64,000 nt of DNA, taken from the NCBI GenBank assembly GCA_902595845.1, contig CACJRN010000006.1:1531-65530 (forward strand), in the 5' to 3' direction. The notes beneath the pieces were generated by a model. It saw only the letters and a program-made list of their open reading frames with translations, was not told the DNA's origin and made no database searches. A program made the translations under genes and the position numbers. This document shows, one piece after another, positions 57,272 through 64,000 of this stretch. The stretch comes from an uncultured Gammaproteobacteria bacterium. Lineage in GTDB: Bacteria; Pseudomonadota; Gammaproteobacteria; Steroidobacterales; UBA11654. Position 1 is the first letter of the stretch. Each line of letters starts with the position of its first letter.

Positions 57272-58293
57272 TTCTTATTCTCCAAATTAAGTTTTGTTAA
57301 ATAGAGGTCATGAAAATATGCGACCCCTGTTTCATATTTTTTACTTAGCGGTCCTTCATTATATATACCTGCTTGAAGATTTTGCTGTATTTCTGGAATC
57401 AGCTTTTGATCTTCCAGGCTGACCTCTAATTGATATTTTCCCTCTTTATTTTCAAAATCCTCCACGTCGACGTCAGATGGGCGAAATAGATTATAGACGA
57501 CCCTACACCATTTGGGTTTGAGAGGCTCAATTCTTTGGAAAACAATGCCTCTTCCATAGATATTGAAAATAAAATTTGGAAAGTGCCAGCCAAAGCTTCC
57601 AGGTTGATTGCTATTAGCTCGATCTGGCACAGAGTGAACACTATATTCATTCATATTCTCTAACTTATATTCTTGCCAAACTACATCACGATTGAGCTGA
57701 GGATGGACCAGGGGGATGTGATAACCTTCTTGATAATTATCAACATATGTTTTCCAGTTTGCATGAACATCAAACCTGAGCTCATTATGGAGAATCAAGT
57801 TGTCAGTAAAATAATTACTAACAATTTTTTCAAAGCCACCAAACCATTTATCTAGAGGTTTGGATTCCTTATTAAGGTTTATAAAAATAAGACCAAAACG
57901 TTCGGCTACCGATATTTCAAAGAGAGAATGTCTGTCTTTTTCAAAATCATCATTCGCATAAAATTTTGGCGTGTCCATTAGCTTTCCATTGAGATCGTAC
58001 TTCCAACCATGATAGGGACATATCATGTGCTTGCAGACACCCTCTTTATTTGAGATCACTTTGGCCGCTCTATGCCTGCAGACATTATGAAAAGCCTTTA
58101 GATTACCCGAGTTATCTCTGACGACGATAATTGGATAGTTGATTAAATCAGTGGTTATATATGATCCAGAGGTTGTTAATTGATCTGATCTTCCGACCCA
58201 GAGCCACTCGTTTTTAAATATGCTTTCAGTCTCCTGATTGAAAACAGATGACGAGTGATAGAAGTCTGACGATAAAGTTTTTGTCCTGGACAT
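57268..58293 (-). CDS. Rieske non-heme iron oxygenase alpha subunit (choline monooxygenase/GbcA/CntA-like group)
   Basis: NVCRHR...CPYHGW (Rieske), NWKTYVDNYQEGYHIPLVHP (Fe ligands), ED...IQ. Confidence 0.9.
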   Translation of the reverse strand: MSRTKTLSSDFYHSSSVFNQETESIFKNEWLWVGRSDQLTTSGSYITTDLINYPIIVVRDNSGNLKAFHNVCRHRAAKVISNKEGVCKHMICPYHGWKYDLNGKLMDTPKFYANDDFEKDRHSLFEISVAERFGLIFINLNKESKPLDKWFGGFEKIVSNYFTDNLILHNELRFDVHANWKTYVDNYQEGYHIPLVHPQLNRDVVWQEYKLENMNEYSVHSVPDRANSNQPGSFGWHFPNFIFNIYGRGIVFQRIEPLKPKWCRVVYNLFRPSDVDVEDFENKEGKYQLEVSLEDQKLIPEIQQNLQAGIYNEGPLSKKYETGVAYFHDLYLTKLNLENKK

Positions 58294-58359
58294 AAAAATG
58301 ATTTAAAACGATATTATGATCTGTAATCATATTAAATGAAATTAGATTAAGGACCACCC

Positions 58360-59112
58360 ATTAAATTAGAAAGTAAAGTTGCATTAATTACAGGAGCCTC
58401 GACAGGAATTGGGGCAGGAATAGCAGCTGCATTTGCAAAAGAAGGCGCCAAGGTAGTTATAAACTATCCAAATGAAGAGGAAGAAGAAAACGCACAAAGT
58501 GTTTTAAGCGAGATTTCTAAATATTCAGATTCATCGACTATTTTAAAAGCAGATGTTTCTAATTCAGCAGAAGTTTCAAAAATGGTTCAATCTGTAACTG
58601 ATCAATATAAGAGAATTGATATCCTTGTTAATAATGCTGGTATCGCTACCAGTGCCCCAATACATGAAATGACAGATGCAATGTGGGATGAATTAATTTC
58701 AATCCATCTTAATGGGACCTTCTATGCGACAAGAGAATGTTTGAAGGTAATGTATGAACAAGAATATGGCAGAATAATTAATACAGCATCGCAATTAGCA
58801 TACAAAGGCAGTCCAGGTTTTTCACATTACACAGCAGCCAAAGGTGCAATCATATCATTTACCAGATCACTCTCTCTTGAAATTGGAAAAATGAATATAA
58901 GAGCAAACTGTGTAGCACCTGGCGCTACGATGACAAGGATGCTATCAGAAGTACCGACTGAGATTCTAGATGGCATCAAAGCGTCCATACCTAAAGGAAC
59001 AATTGCAAACATAGAGGAAATAGTGCCTGCATATGTGTTTTTAGCTTCAGACGACGGCAATCATTTTGTAGGACAAACGATTAGCCCAAATGGCGGAGAT
59101 CATTTCTTATAG
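58360..59112 (+). CDS. Classical short-chain dehydrogenase/reductase (FabG-like); apparent ATT start
   Basis: Frame extends upstream of the called ORF to IKLESKVALITGASTGIG; NNAGI, YTAAK; in-frame TAA at 58348. Confidence 0.88.
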   Translation: MKLESKVALITGASTGIGAGIAAAFAKEGAKVVINYPNEEEEENAQSVLSEISKYSDSSTILKADVSNSAEVSKMVQSVTDQYKRIDILVNNAGIATSAPIHEMTDAMWDELISIHLNGTFYATRECLKVMYEQEYGRIINTASQLAYKGSPGFSHYTAAKGAIISFTRSLSLEIGKMNIRANCVAPGATMTRMLSEVPTEILDGIKASIPKGTIANIEEIVPAYVFLASDDGNHFVGQTISPNGGDHFL

Positions 59113-59187
59113 AACATAATATTTTGTAAATCAGTTCTTATATTATAAGATCGTATATATTGTGATAATGAAGTATTTGAATGTCAA

Positions 59188-60494
59188 TATGTATGCTATA
59201 TGATAATAAATAGTAATAAGGTTACTCCAGAGTTCCTCGATACACTAAAGATTAAGGATAAGGCCTATTTTATATCAATTGAGGATTACAAAGGTTTTAG
59301 AATTAAGGTAAACCCTTCAGGTAGGATAAGTTTTGTAACCTACGCACGAATTAAAGGCGGCGGTAAACCTAGAACTATAACTCATGGTTCAAAAAATAAA
59401 CTCCCATTCCCAGTGGCAATTGATTTACATATTCAATCAATTGATCTCTTAAATAAAGGCATTGATCCTAACCTTCTAAAAAAAACAAAAAGAGACCAAT
59501 TTTATGGTTCTATAAAGTTTATTGATCTTGCAAATGAATATATCTCAAGTAAAAAATTATCAGGCGAACATTCTGATCAACACTCTGACCACAATTCTAA
59601 ATACTTGATTGCAACAAAACTTAAGGCATTTCATGAAGACAATATTGAAAATATTACTATAGAGAAATTAGAATCATGGTTTAGGAACAATAAGCACACA
59701 CCAGCAGCATCTAAGAATGCATTGATGCTATTATCTAAAATATTCAAATATGCAACAGCAACTGGTTTTTATCATTTACAAAATAATCCTGTAAGTGAAT
59801 TGAAAGATTCGCTTTTCATAGGCAATCAAAAAACATCTAAAAAACAGTTAGATCTAGAGAGTGAGTATTCAGAATATCTATACAATCTATGCGACCCTAT
59901 GAGCGAATACAGTTTAAACCCAATTACGAGGAATATTATTTATTTGATGACCATCACAGGGTTAAAAAAGACTGACATATTAAATTTAAAAAAGGATCAA
60001 ATTATTGAAAATAGTCATATAAATATTAATAGAAGAAAAAGCTTCATTCAGATAGTGCCAATTACAGATGACATACAGTCCATTTTAGAGCATACAAATC
60101 AGTATCTAAATTCAGAAGCTAAATCATTTAATAACGACTATATTTTTTACAACCCAGTAACTAAGAAACCGATAACAAACCTAAGAAAATCCTTTATAAA
60201 GATTTCCTCATCTTTTGATTGGAATCTATACCCAGAAGCTATCAGAAAAAGCTTTGCAAATATTTGTGATGAAGTTGCAATACCAAGAAAGCACTATTAC
60301 CAGTTACTAGGTATTAGGGAAAGTTATATTCCTCATAGTGATGGAAAACTTGAGCATGAACAAATCAATAAACTAAGGGATTCACTTCGCTGTGTACAGG
60401 ATGAAATTAATAACAAATGTCCCTTGATAGTCCCTGGAAGATATAACAGAATATCTGATCTCTTATTTTCGTAATCTATGTATGCTATTTGATA
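59188..60494 (+). repeat. 18-bp direct repeat (1 mismatch) bracketing the integrase ORF
   Basis: TATGTATGCTATATGATA (59188-59205) and TATGTATGCTATTTGATA (60477-60494). Confidence 0.8.
59200..60474 (+). CDS. P4-like tyrosine integrase homologue with substituted catalytic residues
   Basis: Arm-binding N-terminus (GFRIKVNPSGRISF...GIDP), NNPV, box I TGLKKTDI, box II PEAIRKSFA...LLGI. Confidence 0.8.
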   Translation: MIINSNKVTPEFLDTLKIKDKAYFISIEDYKGFRIKVNPSGRISFVTYARIKGGGKPRTITHGSKNKLPFPVAIDLHIQSIDLLNKGIDPNLLKKTKRDQFYGSIKFIDLANEYISSKKLSGEHSDQHSDHNSKYLIATKLKAFHEDNIENITIEKLESWFRNNKHTPAASKNALMLLSKIFKYATATGFYHLQNNPVSELKDSLFIGNQKTSKKQLDLESEYSEYLYNLCDPMSEYSLNPITRNIIYLMTITGLKKTDILNLKKDQIIENSHININRRKSFIQIVPITDDIQSILEHTNQYLNSEAKSFNNDYIFYNPVTKKPITNLRKSFIKISSSFDWNLYPEAIRKSFANICDEVAIPRKHYYQLLGIRESYIPHSDGKLEHEQINKLRDSLRCVQDEINNKCPLIVPGRYNRISDLLFS

Positions 60495-60555
60495 TATTAG
60501 AAGAGAAATATCTATAAGTTACTGATATATATATCAATAATATCAGGACATAATA

Positions 60556-61662
60556 TTAATATAATACGACTGACCTTATTGACTCACCTTTGTGCATTAA
60601 ATGAAATGCTTCATTGATTTCTTCAAGGGGCATTGTATGTGTGATCATATCGTCTATATTAATCTTTCCATCCATATACCAATCAACAATTTTTGGTACA
60701 TCTGTTCGACCTCTTGCTCCACCAAAAGCAGACCCTCTCCATACTCGTCCAGTCACTAATTGAAATGGTCTTGTCGATATTTCCTGACCTGCACCCGCAA
60801 CACCAATGATTACAGATTCACCCCATCCTTTATGACAACACTCAAGAGCTTGTCTCATTGTCTCCACATTACCAATGCACTCAAATGAATAATCGGCACC
60901 ACCATCTGTGAGATCAATTATAGCTTCCACTACATCATCTATTTTTGTTGGGTTTATAAAGTCAGTCATTCCAAATTTTGTCGCTAAAGGTACTTTCGAT
61001 TCGTTAATATCGATTCCAACTATTTTATTTGCACCAACCATTTTTGCTCCTTGGATAACATTCAGGCCAATACCACCTAATCCAAATACTACGACATTAG
61101 AGCCCGGCTCAACTTTTGCATCATAAACCACAGCACCGATGCCTGTTGTTACACCGCAACCTATGTAGCAAATTTTGTCAAACGGTGCGTCTTGTCTCAC
61201 CTTCGCAACTGCAATCTCAGGCATGACTGAATAATTTGAGAATGTAGAGCAACCCATATAGTGGTATATAGGATCACCATTCAGAGAAAATCTTGACGTT
61301 CCATCCGGCATCAGACCCTGACCTTGTGTTTCTCTAATTGATTGGCAAAGGTTTGTTTTTGGATTCAAACAAAAATTACAGTCTCTGCATTCAGGTGTAT
61401 ATAGAGGTATAACATGATCTCCAGGCTTTACAGAAGTCACATTTTTGCCTACTTCCATTACTATACCAGCGCCTTCATGTCCAAGCACTGAAGGAAAGAT
61501 ACCTTCTGGATCATCGCCAGATAATGTAAACGCATCTGTGTGACACACACCAGTTGCTTTGATCTCTACCAATACTTCATTATCACCTGGGCCATCTAAA
61601 TCCAATTCTTCAATGACAAGATCTTCACCGGCTTTAACTGCAATTGCTGCTTTTGTTTTCAT
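60556..61662 (-). CDS. frmA: S-(hydroxymethyl)glutathione dehydrogenase / class III alcohol dehydrogenase
   Basis: [42 protein letters not shown]. Confidence 0.96.
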
Positions 61663-63185: not shown

Positions 63186-64000
63186 ATGATTGATCCATAT
63201 TTAGCAGTAGCCTTACAAACCAAGGTAAAGCATGTAAAAACCAGGAATGAGGTTCAGGTTAATCTTGATCATATTGGGAATATGATTGAGATGGTTACAC
63301 ATATGTGCTCACTGGAATTACCTGTTCGATTAATTGCATTAGGAGAAGGTGCAATTCAAGGTTTTGTGGATGAGATATTGGATATGAATCAGGCAGAATA
63401 TGCAAAAACAATGGCAGCAGAAATCCCTGGCCCTGAAACAGACTTTCTAGGCAAGCTAGCAAAAGAGAAAGGCACCTATATCATTGGCCAACTCAAGGAG
63501 AAGCTTCCGGAATATAAAGATAGATTTTTCAATACAATATTTATTATTGATGAAAACGGTGATGTCATATACAAGCATCATAAGAACATTGTTGTATTCG
63601 TTGAACACTCAACAACGCCTCATGATGTTTATGACCAATGGGTTGAGCAGCATGGCGACTCAATCGAAGCTTTTTTCCCAGTTGCAAAAACACCAATAGG
63701 AAATATTGCAGGCACTGTTGGAGTTGAGGGCTCTTTTCCAGAGTCATTCAGAGCATTCGCTTTGAATGGTGCAGAAATTCTTTACCGTGCATCTTTGCCT
63801 GAGCCTTGGGTATCGAGAGAAATTTTTGAGGTTCAGAATCGATCAAGAGCGATAGACAACACTGCTTATATGATAGCGCCAAATACAGGATCATTGATAA
63901 TGCCATCAGAAAGTGGCGGCGATCCAACAATAATTGATGGTGCCTTGGGCGGTAGGTCTTCGATAATTGATTACAAAGGAACAATACTTTCTCAAACGGA
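63186..64000 (+). CDS. Nitrilase/carbon-nitrogen hydrolase fold protein (3' truncated by window edge; not in ORF track)
   Basis: Hand translation MIDPYLAVALQ...LGEGAIQG...EIPGPET...FFNTIFIIDENG...KHHK...TPIGNIAGTVGVEGSFPE...GAEIL...RAIDN; open to the window end. Confidence 0.85.
   Translation, partial: MIDPYLAVALQTKVKHVKTRNEVQVNLDHIGNMIEMVTHMCSLELPVRLIALGEGAIQGFVDEILDMNQAEYAKTMAAEIPGPETDFLGKLAKEKGTYIIGQLKEKLPEYKDRFFNTIFIIDENGDVIYKHHKNIVVFVEHSTTPHDVYDQWVEQHGDSIEAFFPVAKTPIGNIAGTVGVEGSFPESFRAFALNGAEILYRASLPEPWVSREIFEVQNRSRAIDNTAYMIAPNTGSLIMPSESGGDPTIIDGALGGRSSIIDYKGTILSQT

Follow-up and report, generated by a model that had tools for sequence, protein, structure and literature searches.

The window analysed here, a 64,000-nucleotide stretch of contig CACJRN010000006.1 in the uncultured gammaproteobacterial assembly GCA_902595845.1, holds an integrase-derived gene whose open reading frame (ORF; 59200..60474, forward strand) encodes a protein of 424 amino acids and is set between two nested pairs of direct repeats. 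The explanation that we consider best, with a probability of approximately 0.55, is that the gene is an exapted, non-catalytic integrase relic, the product of which would bind the remains of its own attL and attR sites and would probably repress its own gene. A P4/SXT-type integrative element would have been reduced to attL-int-attR before the two genera of a marine gammaproteobacterial family split, and the resulting fossil would then have been inherited vertically at one chromosomal site. Such a relic is proposed because the outer repeats stand at the junctions with the host genes, the inner repeats stand against both ends of the gene, and nothing else is present. It would have been kept as something other than a recombinase because the gene is fixed at one locus, diverges in parallel with its neighbours, is under purifying selection, and has lost the catalytic set throughout the family.

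By fold and by profile, the protein is a member of the tyrosine recombinase superfamily. For residues 237-354, the Pfam Phage_integrase profile (PF00589) gives 29.4 bits (cut-off 27.1), covering profile positions 18-138 of 172 only, and the profiles Arm-DNA-bind_3 (PF13356, DUF4102; 23.2 bits) and Phage_int_M (20.1 bits) remain under their cut-off of 27. NCBIfam gave no meaningful family for the protein, and sequence searches of the Protein Data Bank (PDB) that used the protein or the family profile as query returned spurious weak matches only. An AlphaFold model was built from 19 family sequences (mean pLDDT 82; pTM 0.52, at which the arrangement of the domains is uncertain), and its top Foldseek match in the PDB is the full-length lambda integrase (1z1b, E 2e-7), followed by XerA, the Tn1549 integrase, XerH, XerD, and Cre, with E values from 2e-7 to 4e-4 for lambda integrase, XerA, the Tn1549 integrase, and XerH. 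The initial annotation had proposed an arm-binding N-terminus of the P4 type, and this region does match the solved arm-type domains of P4-like island integrases (3jtz, 3ju0, and 3rmp) at a target TM of 0.75-0.81. Foldseek also returned the non-catalytic repressors with a recombinase fold YopR/MrpR of SPbeta (8bpz, 8bj6, and 8a0a) and SroF of phi3T (9rd5). The IntSXT subgroup is reported to be defined by an N-terminal DUF4102 arm-binding domain (PMC8138268), and the ESM Atlas clusters nearest to the protein carry PF13356. Because of the Foldseek matches, including those to P4-like arm domains, the protein is assigned the arm-binding, core-binding, and catalytic-fold architecture of this DUF4102-bearing subgroup. 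It is a three-domain homologue of P4/SXT-type integrases, with an arm-type domain at approximately residues 1-95, which is recognized by structural match though its Pfam score is below the cut-off, a core-binding domain at approximately 107-205, a catalytic-fold domain at approximately 237-372, and a C-terminal tail. Some large DUF4102 clusters in the ESM Atlas carry PF00589 in 15% of their members or in none, so degenerate P4-type integrases may be commoner than one family.

The active site was read from an alignment of the protein with 13 more distant integrases, which were found by a profile search of 1.84 billion representative proteins and 11 of which are fully canonical (TGLR, HDLRRTF, LLNH, and Y). 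At the position of the box I Arg, the family has an invariant Lys (K256, codon 59965); the hairpin Lys (K280) is nearly invariant; the His of HxxR is replaced by an invariant Glu (E346, codon 60235); the second Arg is retained as an invariant Arg (R349); the His of LLxH, which is the last His/Trp position, is Ile or Leu (I372 in the window); and no residue is fixed at the position of the Tyr nucleophile. The initial annotation had placed the two substituted codons, the LLGI reading, and the retained second Arg correctly, and realignment with canonical relatives does not restore canonical residues. Its candidate nucleophile, Y376 in SYIPH, does not stand, since the column is not conserved in the orthologues and the alignments disagree on its placement, one setting it on the canonical Tyr and another approximately six residues earlier. 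The loci L034-L036 have Thr in this column and Tyr nine residues later, L037 and L038 have Asn in it and Tyr at the next residue, and no conserved Tyr column was found after LLG among the orthologues. The window protein has K256, E346, and Ile or Leu at position 372 in common with each of the 15 complete orthologues, at identities as low as 38%, and with all 13 close database homologues that cover these positions. Judged by alignment, the Arg-Lys-His-Arg-His/Trp and Tyr catalytic set is thus incomplete, with three of six positions replaced in every member and no fixed Tyr. The Arg-to-Lys change is the same as that in the crystallized Tn1549 integrase variant R225K (entry titles of 6emz and 6en2).

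The window genome comprises 1.435 Mb in 25 contigs and is 92% complete; the integrase-derived gene is single-copy in it, and its other PF00589 proteins are XerC and XerD only. The family consists of two genera (g1 and g2) with genomes of 1.1-1.6 Mb. In a survey of 60 relatives, the gene was found in 18 of 19 same-family genomes (15/16 in g1 and 3/3 in g2), and the remaining 41 genomes, which represent 23 other families of the order, gave two matches, both weak and partial. A profile search of the family genomes recovered the gene in 19 of 20, and in seven of seven among the high-quality ones. The sole family genome without it (77% complete) also has no frmA and no Rieske orthologue, so the locus is taken to be unassembled there. 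A scan of 185,579 species-representative genomes gave 20 loci, all from uncultured marine Gammaproteobacteria, with the record titles "Gammaproteobacteria bacterium", "Woeseia sp.", "Woeseiaceae", and one "Candidatus Thioglobus". Seventeen of the 18 loci from the survey were fetched; G011, in which the gene is split over two contig ends, was omitted from alignments and counts, the break in the gene of G006 is a run of N and not a frameshift, and L028, with 19 ambiguous residues, was included when motifs were counted, excluded from the domain statistics, and swapped for a database homologue in one alignment.

All 17 fetched loci have the gene at the same chromosomal position. The order SDR-int-frmA-UbiD-like gene was seen in each of the 14 g1 loci, and the three g2 loci have the same neighbourhood without the SDR gene and with other genes inserted outside the motifs. 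When genomes are ranked by identity to the window, the gene and its neighbours agree closely (Spearman 0.94, 0.93, and 0.84; the p-values overstate the agreement, as related genomes are non-independent). No empty site was found in the 20 family genomes, and a search of metagenome contigs by way of the SDR protein gave three close loci, two of which extend past the SDR gene and both of which carry the ORF, a sample too small to exclude rare empty sites. The family profile was confirmed in none of 46 candidate stretches of viral contigs, and the nearest outgroup protein, P0025, has remote partial matches there only, at 26-49% identity. No tRNA gene was found in the whole 64-kb window and no additional ORF fits in the 87- and 81-nt spacers on the two sides of the gene, which agrees with the absence of a tRNA target and of cargo given in the initial annotation. 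The same annotation had called the locus a minimal cassette, and present-day mobility of such a cassette is contradicted by the synteny of all 17 loci, by a divergence that follows the neighbours, and by the lack of an empty site in 20 genomes and two informative contigs. Integrases of the IntSXT/P4-like kind are expected to drive a mobile element, such as an island, an ICE, or a phage, beside a tRNA or another conserved gene, with a presence that varies between genomes; this is not the case here, because the locus has no cargo, no tRNA in 64 kb, one position in 17/17 loci, presence in 19/20 genomes, no empty site, and no viral relatives. The integrase gene is not a present-day mobile cassette and is vertically inherited at one site.

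The frame is uninterrupted in the window, as first annotated, and it is open at 422-435 amino acids in the window and in all 16 orthologues read. The ATG does not vary among the orthologues, and both AGY and TCN codons are used for Ser5, so translation is taken to begin at the ATG at 59200. Seven pairs with a synonymous divergence (dS) below 1.1 gave ratios of nonsynonymous to synonymous divergence (dN/dS) of 0.07-0.23 by the Nei-Gojobori method, the deeper pairs being synonymously saturated. Together with the substitutions common to all orthologues, these values bear out the earlier proposal of an intact, substituted gene that is selected for a non-catalytic role. Between the four clades, identity is 58% in the arm domain, 47% in the catalytic fold, 37% in the core-binding domain, and 28% in the C-terminal tail, and the invariant columns number 33/95 in the arm domain and 90/424 in the whole protein. 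The arm domain is the best-conserved part of the protein.

The two nested pairs of direct repeats described in the initial annotation, with the outer copies at the SDR and frmA stop codons, are real, and they are kept across both genera. The inner repeat is an 18-nt direct repeat, TATGTATGCTATWTGATA, at 59188-59205 and 60477-60494 on the forward strand, with 17 of 18 positions identical; the 18-mer has two matches in the window, and none of 100 shuffles gave any. The upstream copy of the inner motif, GTATGCTAT (59191..59199), lies directly against the ATG, where a ribosome-binding site would normally be, and the downstream copy (60471..60488) is bipartite, with GTAATCTAT, which holds the stop codon TAA (60472-60474), followed by GTATGCTAT (60480-60488). 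Upstream, GTATGCTAT is exact in 17/17 loci at 9-15 nt 5' of the ATG, with ten invariant columns. Downstream, it has at most one mismatch in 15/17 loci at 6-13 nt past the stop codon; in L025 and L026 it has two mismatches, and in L037 and L038 it overlaps the stop codon. A GTAWT half-site lies 4-5 nt upstream of most inner copies on both sides, is absent at the window's own upstream copy, and contains the stop codon on the downstream side in many loci, and GTAWT and the inner motif together form two units of approximately 9 nt about one helical turn apart. The 12-mer TATGTATGCTAT occurs twice in the 1.435-Mb genome, both times at the integrase-derived ORF, and the 9-mer GTATGCTAT is not enriched genome-wide, with nine occurrences against approximately 17 expected.

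The outer repeat is the 10-mer ACATAATATT at 59114-59123 and 60548-60557, again a direct repeat on the forward strand, which extends to 13 nt with 12/13 identity. Its upstream copy, AGAACATAATATT (59111..59123; conserved core AGAACA), begins inside the SDR stop codon (59110-59112), 1 nt past which the 10-mer itself starts, and its downstream copy, AGGACATAATATT (60545..60557), terminates within the frmA stop codon (60556-60558), frmA being convergent, and the 10-mer overlaps this codon. The outer 10-mer alone is marginal by shuffling, as 5 of 100 shuffles reached at least two matches, and it is accepted because it is conserved across species. Upstream, all 17 loci have AGAACAyAAT with at most two mismatches, 88-107 nt 5' of the ATG; downstream, it is present at the same stringency in 16/17 loci, 56-79 nt past the stop codon, and L037 retains AGAACA only. 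AGAAC forms invariant columns within an otherwise unconserved spacer, and the outer motif persists in g2 despite the absence of the SDR gene and the different neighbours. The two outer copies of one genome differ beyond AGAACA in L032, L033, and L037-L039, whereas their variable bases agree within L034 and within L036 and differ at one base in L035. All copies of the inner and outer motifs lie on the same strand. A third, weaker motif, CTGATATATAT (60522..60532, forward strand; core TGATATATA), stands between the inner and outer motifs; TGATATATA is present in every locus, and its side (upstream, downstream, or both) and orientation vary by lineage. Between clades, the spacers cannot be aligned except for these three motif islands. 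The conservation of motifs around the gene would favour a protein that binds its own flanks.

A 7-bp inverted repeat (CTGATAT ... ATATCAG, 11-nt spacer) was also seen in the window at 60522-60550, with its right arm entering the downstream outer motif; L024, the closest relative, also has this inverted repeat, and it is not clearly kept in deeper lineages. An account of the motifs by RNA structure was dropped, as the spacer folds no better than shuffles (z-scores 0.34-0.67) and an Rfam scan of 58200-61000 gave no match.

On the best explanation, the arm-type N-terminal domain would recognize the inner GTAWT-N4-5-GTATGCTAT sites that abut the gene's own start and stop codons, and the core-binding and catalytic-fold domains would recognize the outer AGAACA sites. 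Integrase-like oligomers would bridge both flanks, and the occupied site at the start codon would repress the integrase-derived gene itself. Prediction of a homodimer gave no support and is given no weight for or against. A sequence-specific DNA-binding protein, and not an enzyme, is what appears to have been maintained, because the three-domain architecture is kept and the catalytic set is lost; binding, bridging, and self-limitation would be the simplest mechanism given that, within the protein, conservation is highest in the arm domain and, within the spacers, in the motifs, which are unique to the locus. Integrases have been reported to repress their own synthesis (PMC10516654). A broader version of the same idea, which we regard as possible and clearly less probable, is that the whole attL-int-attR unit has been exapted as an intasome-like chromosomal loop that would regulate itself, guard the former site, and poison incoming relatives in trans. 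If true, this would represent a novel form of immunity to mobile elements, made from the integration machinery of a mobile element.

Several points weigh against the relic explanation. The binding of the motifs, the bridging of the flanks, and the self-repression are inferred solely from co-conservation, and at a pTM of just 0.52 the model leaves the domain arrangement uncertain. Purifying selection in a streamlined genome of 1.4 Mb has no obvious cause in a module that is self-contained, so an unseen trans function is needed. Regarding the loss of catalysis, H365 and Y367 are the sole invariant His/aromatic residues near the nucleophile position, in the helix preceding LLG, and some residual chemistry may be possible on this reading. 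Among the outgroup proteins, the closest two (157 and 143 bits) keep Arg, His, and Tyr and have Asn or Gln in place of the HxxR His, and the CTnDOT subgroup is described as having its catalytic Arg at an alternative position (PMC8138268). Regarding the inner motif, TATGCT lies 12 to 7 nt before the ATG in 9/17 loci (motif at -13) by sequence reading, placed like the -10 element of a leaderless mRNA, and on the same reading no Shine-Dalgarno-like sequence is visible upstream of the ATG in any of the 17 loci; GTATGCTAT beside the ATG could instead, or also, be an expression signal.

Expression was approached through metagenomic records. The window stretch is found in marine metagenomes of 14 studies, and the expression data are contigs from one DNA and three RNA runs, in which rare variants are dropped, DNA carry-over is possible, and uncovered parts are no evidence. 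RNA-library contigs from three studies cover parts of the ORF at a depth of 2-8, compared with up to 60 for frmA, depths that cannot rank genes. The upstream spacer is spanned by a DNA contig and covered by none of the RNA contigs, two of which begin at 59212, a weak hint that the gene has its own transcription start at or near the inner motif. A consensus promoter scan gave six promoter-like sites against a mean of 10.6 in shuffles, and no terminator, and was uninformative. The SDR neighbour does have a Shine-Dalgarno-like sequence.

Other explanations have been weighed on the same evidence. It is rather unlikely, in our view, that the protein is first of all a guard or immunity factor, i.e., a dominant-negative subunit or an occupant of att sites that would block the integration of related P4/SXT-type elements or phages at the former attachment site, with the flanks only setting its own level; this role extends the best explanation and is compatible with it. 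Integrases act as oligomers, and a catalytically dead subunit that still recognizes arm and core sites is what a poison would be expected to look like. The genome has no integrase besides XerC and XerD, the window has no tRNA or element, and a guard would supply the trans function that purifying selection demands. Against it, no related active element was found, no relative of the family was confirmed in the viral contigs, which gave only the remote, partial matches of the nearest outgroup protein, and the motif pattern (14 specified bases) occurs in at least 116 loci of viral contigs with a single match each, approximately the chance level by a rough estimate. Nothing ties the motifs to foreign DNA. 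A still-active recombinase is less probable again. It would work with a non-canonical site made of Lys, Glu, Arg, and a relocated Tyr such as Y367, and would excise, re-insert, or rearrange the 1.4-kb unit. In its favour, the layout is precisely that of attL-int-attR, with a direct repeat preserved on either side; the variable bases of the outer motif show partly parallel changes in the two copies of the L034-L036 lineage; H365 and Y367 are invariant; and natural recombinases with displaced catalytic residues are reported to exist (PMC8138268). Active recombination is opposed by the replacement of three of six catalytic positions in every member, with no Tyr column at the place of the nucleophile, and by the outer copies that differ beyond AGAACA in five loci, which means that no identical crossover region is maintained. 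The gene is present as one copy per genome, always at the same site, with no empty site found, and no contig joining across the unit was seen in the one DNA and three RNA runs, a weak observation made on contigs only.

The reading of the motifs as ordinary expression signals of the gene (a promoter or leaderless start, and a transcript end) and of its neighbours, with a protein that acts on targets elsewhere or without sequence specificity, is likewise unlikely. It would account for the leaderless -10-like placement of TATGCT, for the lack of a Shine-Dalgarno-like sequence, and, weakly, for the RNA contigs of two studies that start at 59212 with none covering the upstream spacer. A promoter leaves unexplained the identical same-strand copy directly after the stop codon, seen in 15-17 of the 17 loci, and the paired outer motifs; promoter-like sites are fewer than in shuffles, no terminator was found, and the 9-mer is not enriched elsewhere in the genome. 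It is very unlikely that the protein assists XerC/XerD or a different host recombinase at these sites, as an accessory or architectural factor. XerC and XerD are the sole canonical tyrosine recombinases in the genome, and a short stretch of the XerD-side arm of a dif-like site on contig C17 recurs in the outer motif when the latter is read as its reverse complement, but the likeness amounts to 6-10 nt in AT-rich DNA, and no sign of rearrangement was seen at the locus. In a scan with short half-site motifs, the locus showed no paired inverted half-sites around a 6-nt spacer. The best dif-like site in the genome, with two inverted half-sites around a 6-nt spacer, was found on contig C2 at approximately 62463 (reverse strand), and a second dif-like sequence, C17:4261-4288, shares AGAACATAAT with the outer motif. 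Recognition by the dif/Xer system was rejected as the leading account, because the outer motif resembles a Xer half-site over a short, unpaired stretch only. Lastly, a neutral relic, in which a decaying integrase pseudogene has yet to acquire a stop codon, is scarcely credible. The weak Pfam score and the missing catalytic residues would suit it, but the intact frame in the window and 16 orthologues spans synonymous saturation with 90 of 424 columns invariant, and the open frames and the dN/dS values refute it.

Known systems place the relic more closely. The nearest sequence relatives of the protein are canonical integrases of the P4/SXT type (IntSXT, and the HPI and HAI7 island integrases with the arm domains 3jtz, 3ju0, and 3rmp), with which it has the three-domain architecture in common, and its nested direct repeats are laid out like arm-type and core-type att sites. 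It differs from them in the replaced Arg I, His II, and His/Trp III and in the absence of a fixed Tyr, and in lacking an element, cargo, and a tRNA or any other known target, with vertical inheritance at one locus. By descent it is a P4/SXT-type integrase, but it fails the enzymatic and mobility features that define that type. The phage proteins MrpR (YopR; SPbeta) and SroF (phi3T) are described as having an integrase fold in which catalytic residues have been lost and as sequence-specific repressors on a repeated operator, with only three of seven catalytic residues kept in MrpR (PMC10516654). They match the 424-residue protein in structure at E values of 1.4e-4 to 1.1e-3, and the combination of a recombinase fold with lost catalytic residues is true of it as well. 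The likeness is at the level of the fold only (15-17% identity), and no solved chain of MrpR, YopR, or SroF was returned in the PDB sequence searches with the protein and the family profile. These proteins are phage-encoded master repressors of approximately 320 residues with operators in many phage promoters, whereas the protein described here has 424 residues and an extra arm-type domain, is chromosomal without a prophage, and has motifs only around its own gene. By analogy, MrpR/YopR and SroF would be the closest precedent for how the protein works, yet it is not of that family. Lambda integrase (1z1b, 1z1g, and 5j0n) is the textbook case of a single protein that bridges arm-type and core-type sites. 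It is the best full-length structural match (E 2e-7) at 15-17% sequence identity, and it differs in being catalytically active and in having an arm domain of another subtype. XerC and XerD of the same genome are of the same superfamily, score 172-188 bits against PF00589 with canonical HxLR, LLGH, and Y, compared with 29.6 bits and a degenerate site in the integrase-derived protein, and lack an arm domain. In the open-access papers searched, no account was found of a P4-type integrase that is chromosomal, vertically inherited, and catalytically degenerate and that has conserved flanks resembling att sites.

The neighbours provide the context of the locus. Upstream lies an SDR-family oxidoreductase gene (58360..59112, forward strand; 250 amino acids if read from an ATT start), and downstream the S-(hydroxymethyl)glutathione dehydrogenase gene frmA (60556..61662, reverse strand; TIGR02818, 639.6 bits against a cut-off of 543.95), which is convergent with the integrase-derived ORF. 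The SDR gene has no ATG, GTG, or TTG start (region 58330-58400), and a full Rossmann-fold protein of 250 amino acids is obtained only from the ATT at 58360, which is preceded by AAGGA. A mini-ORF of four codons (ATG AAA TTA GAT TAA) that resembles the first codons of the SDR gene is located just 5' of it. ATT-AAA-TTA is kept in the orthologues whose N-terminus was located (the window, L024, L025, L027, and L028), and the Ile-Lys-Leu start region is also present in L029, L032, and L033. In g2, L037 (3683-5386) and L038 have an extra gene between int and frmA, by sequence reading a candidate sulfate adenylyltransferase/APS kinase, and L039 (7621-9048) has one between int and the Rieske gene, a candidate M20-type amidohydrolase on the same grounds. 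Gene content in g2 changes exactly at the edges of the integrase module, in place of the g1 SDR arrangement, and in L037 the sequence past the outer motif still resembles the 3' end of g1 frmA, though frmA itself is 1.9 kb distant. The idea that the g2 flanking genes are cassettes inserted at the outer motifs was dropped, as L037 has no extra outer-motif copy between frmA and the inserted gene. At the end of the window, a nitrilase/amidase-like ORF (63186-63998) has a 39-47% identical paralogue a few kilobases away in many relatives (L025-L028, L032-L034, and L036).

Integrase genes routinely serve as markers of mobile elements, and here such a gene is a fixed, selected, and non-mobile part of the core chromosome of a bacterial family, where annotation pipelines would wrongly call an island or a "lone integrase". 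Tyrosine recombinases recruited as DNA-binding factors have so far been documented for the phage repressors MrpR/YopR and SroF, and this case adds a chromosomal P4-type protein that retains the arm-binding domain and what look like both att sites. The system is small and defined, a protein of 424 amino acids and two spacers of less than 90 bp, and thus permits direct testing without cultivation of the organism. Its retention in a streamlined genome of 1.4 Mb argues for a real cellular benefit; a possible and attractive candidate for this benefit is that the protein would act in trans on related integrative elements, either as a dominant-negative subunit or by occupying the att site. Most likely, the gene is a former mobile-element enzyme that the family now keeps as a DNA-binding protein.

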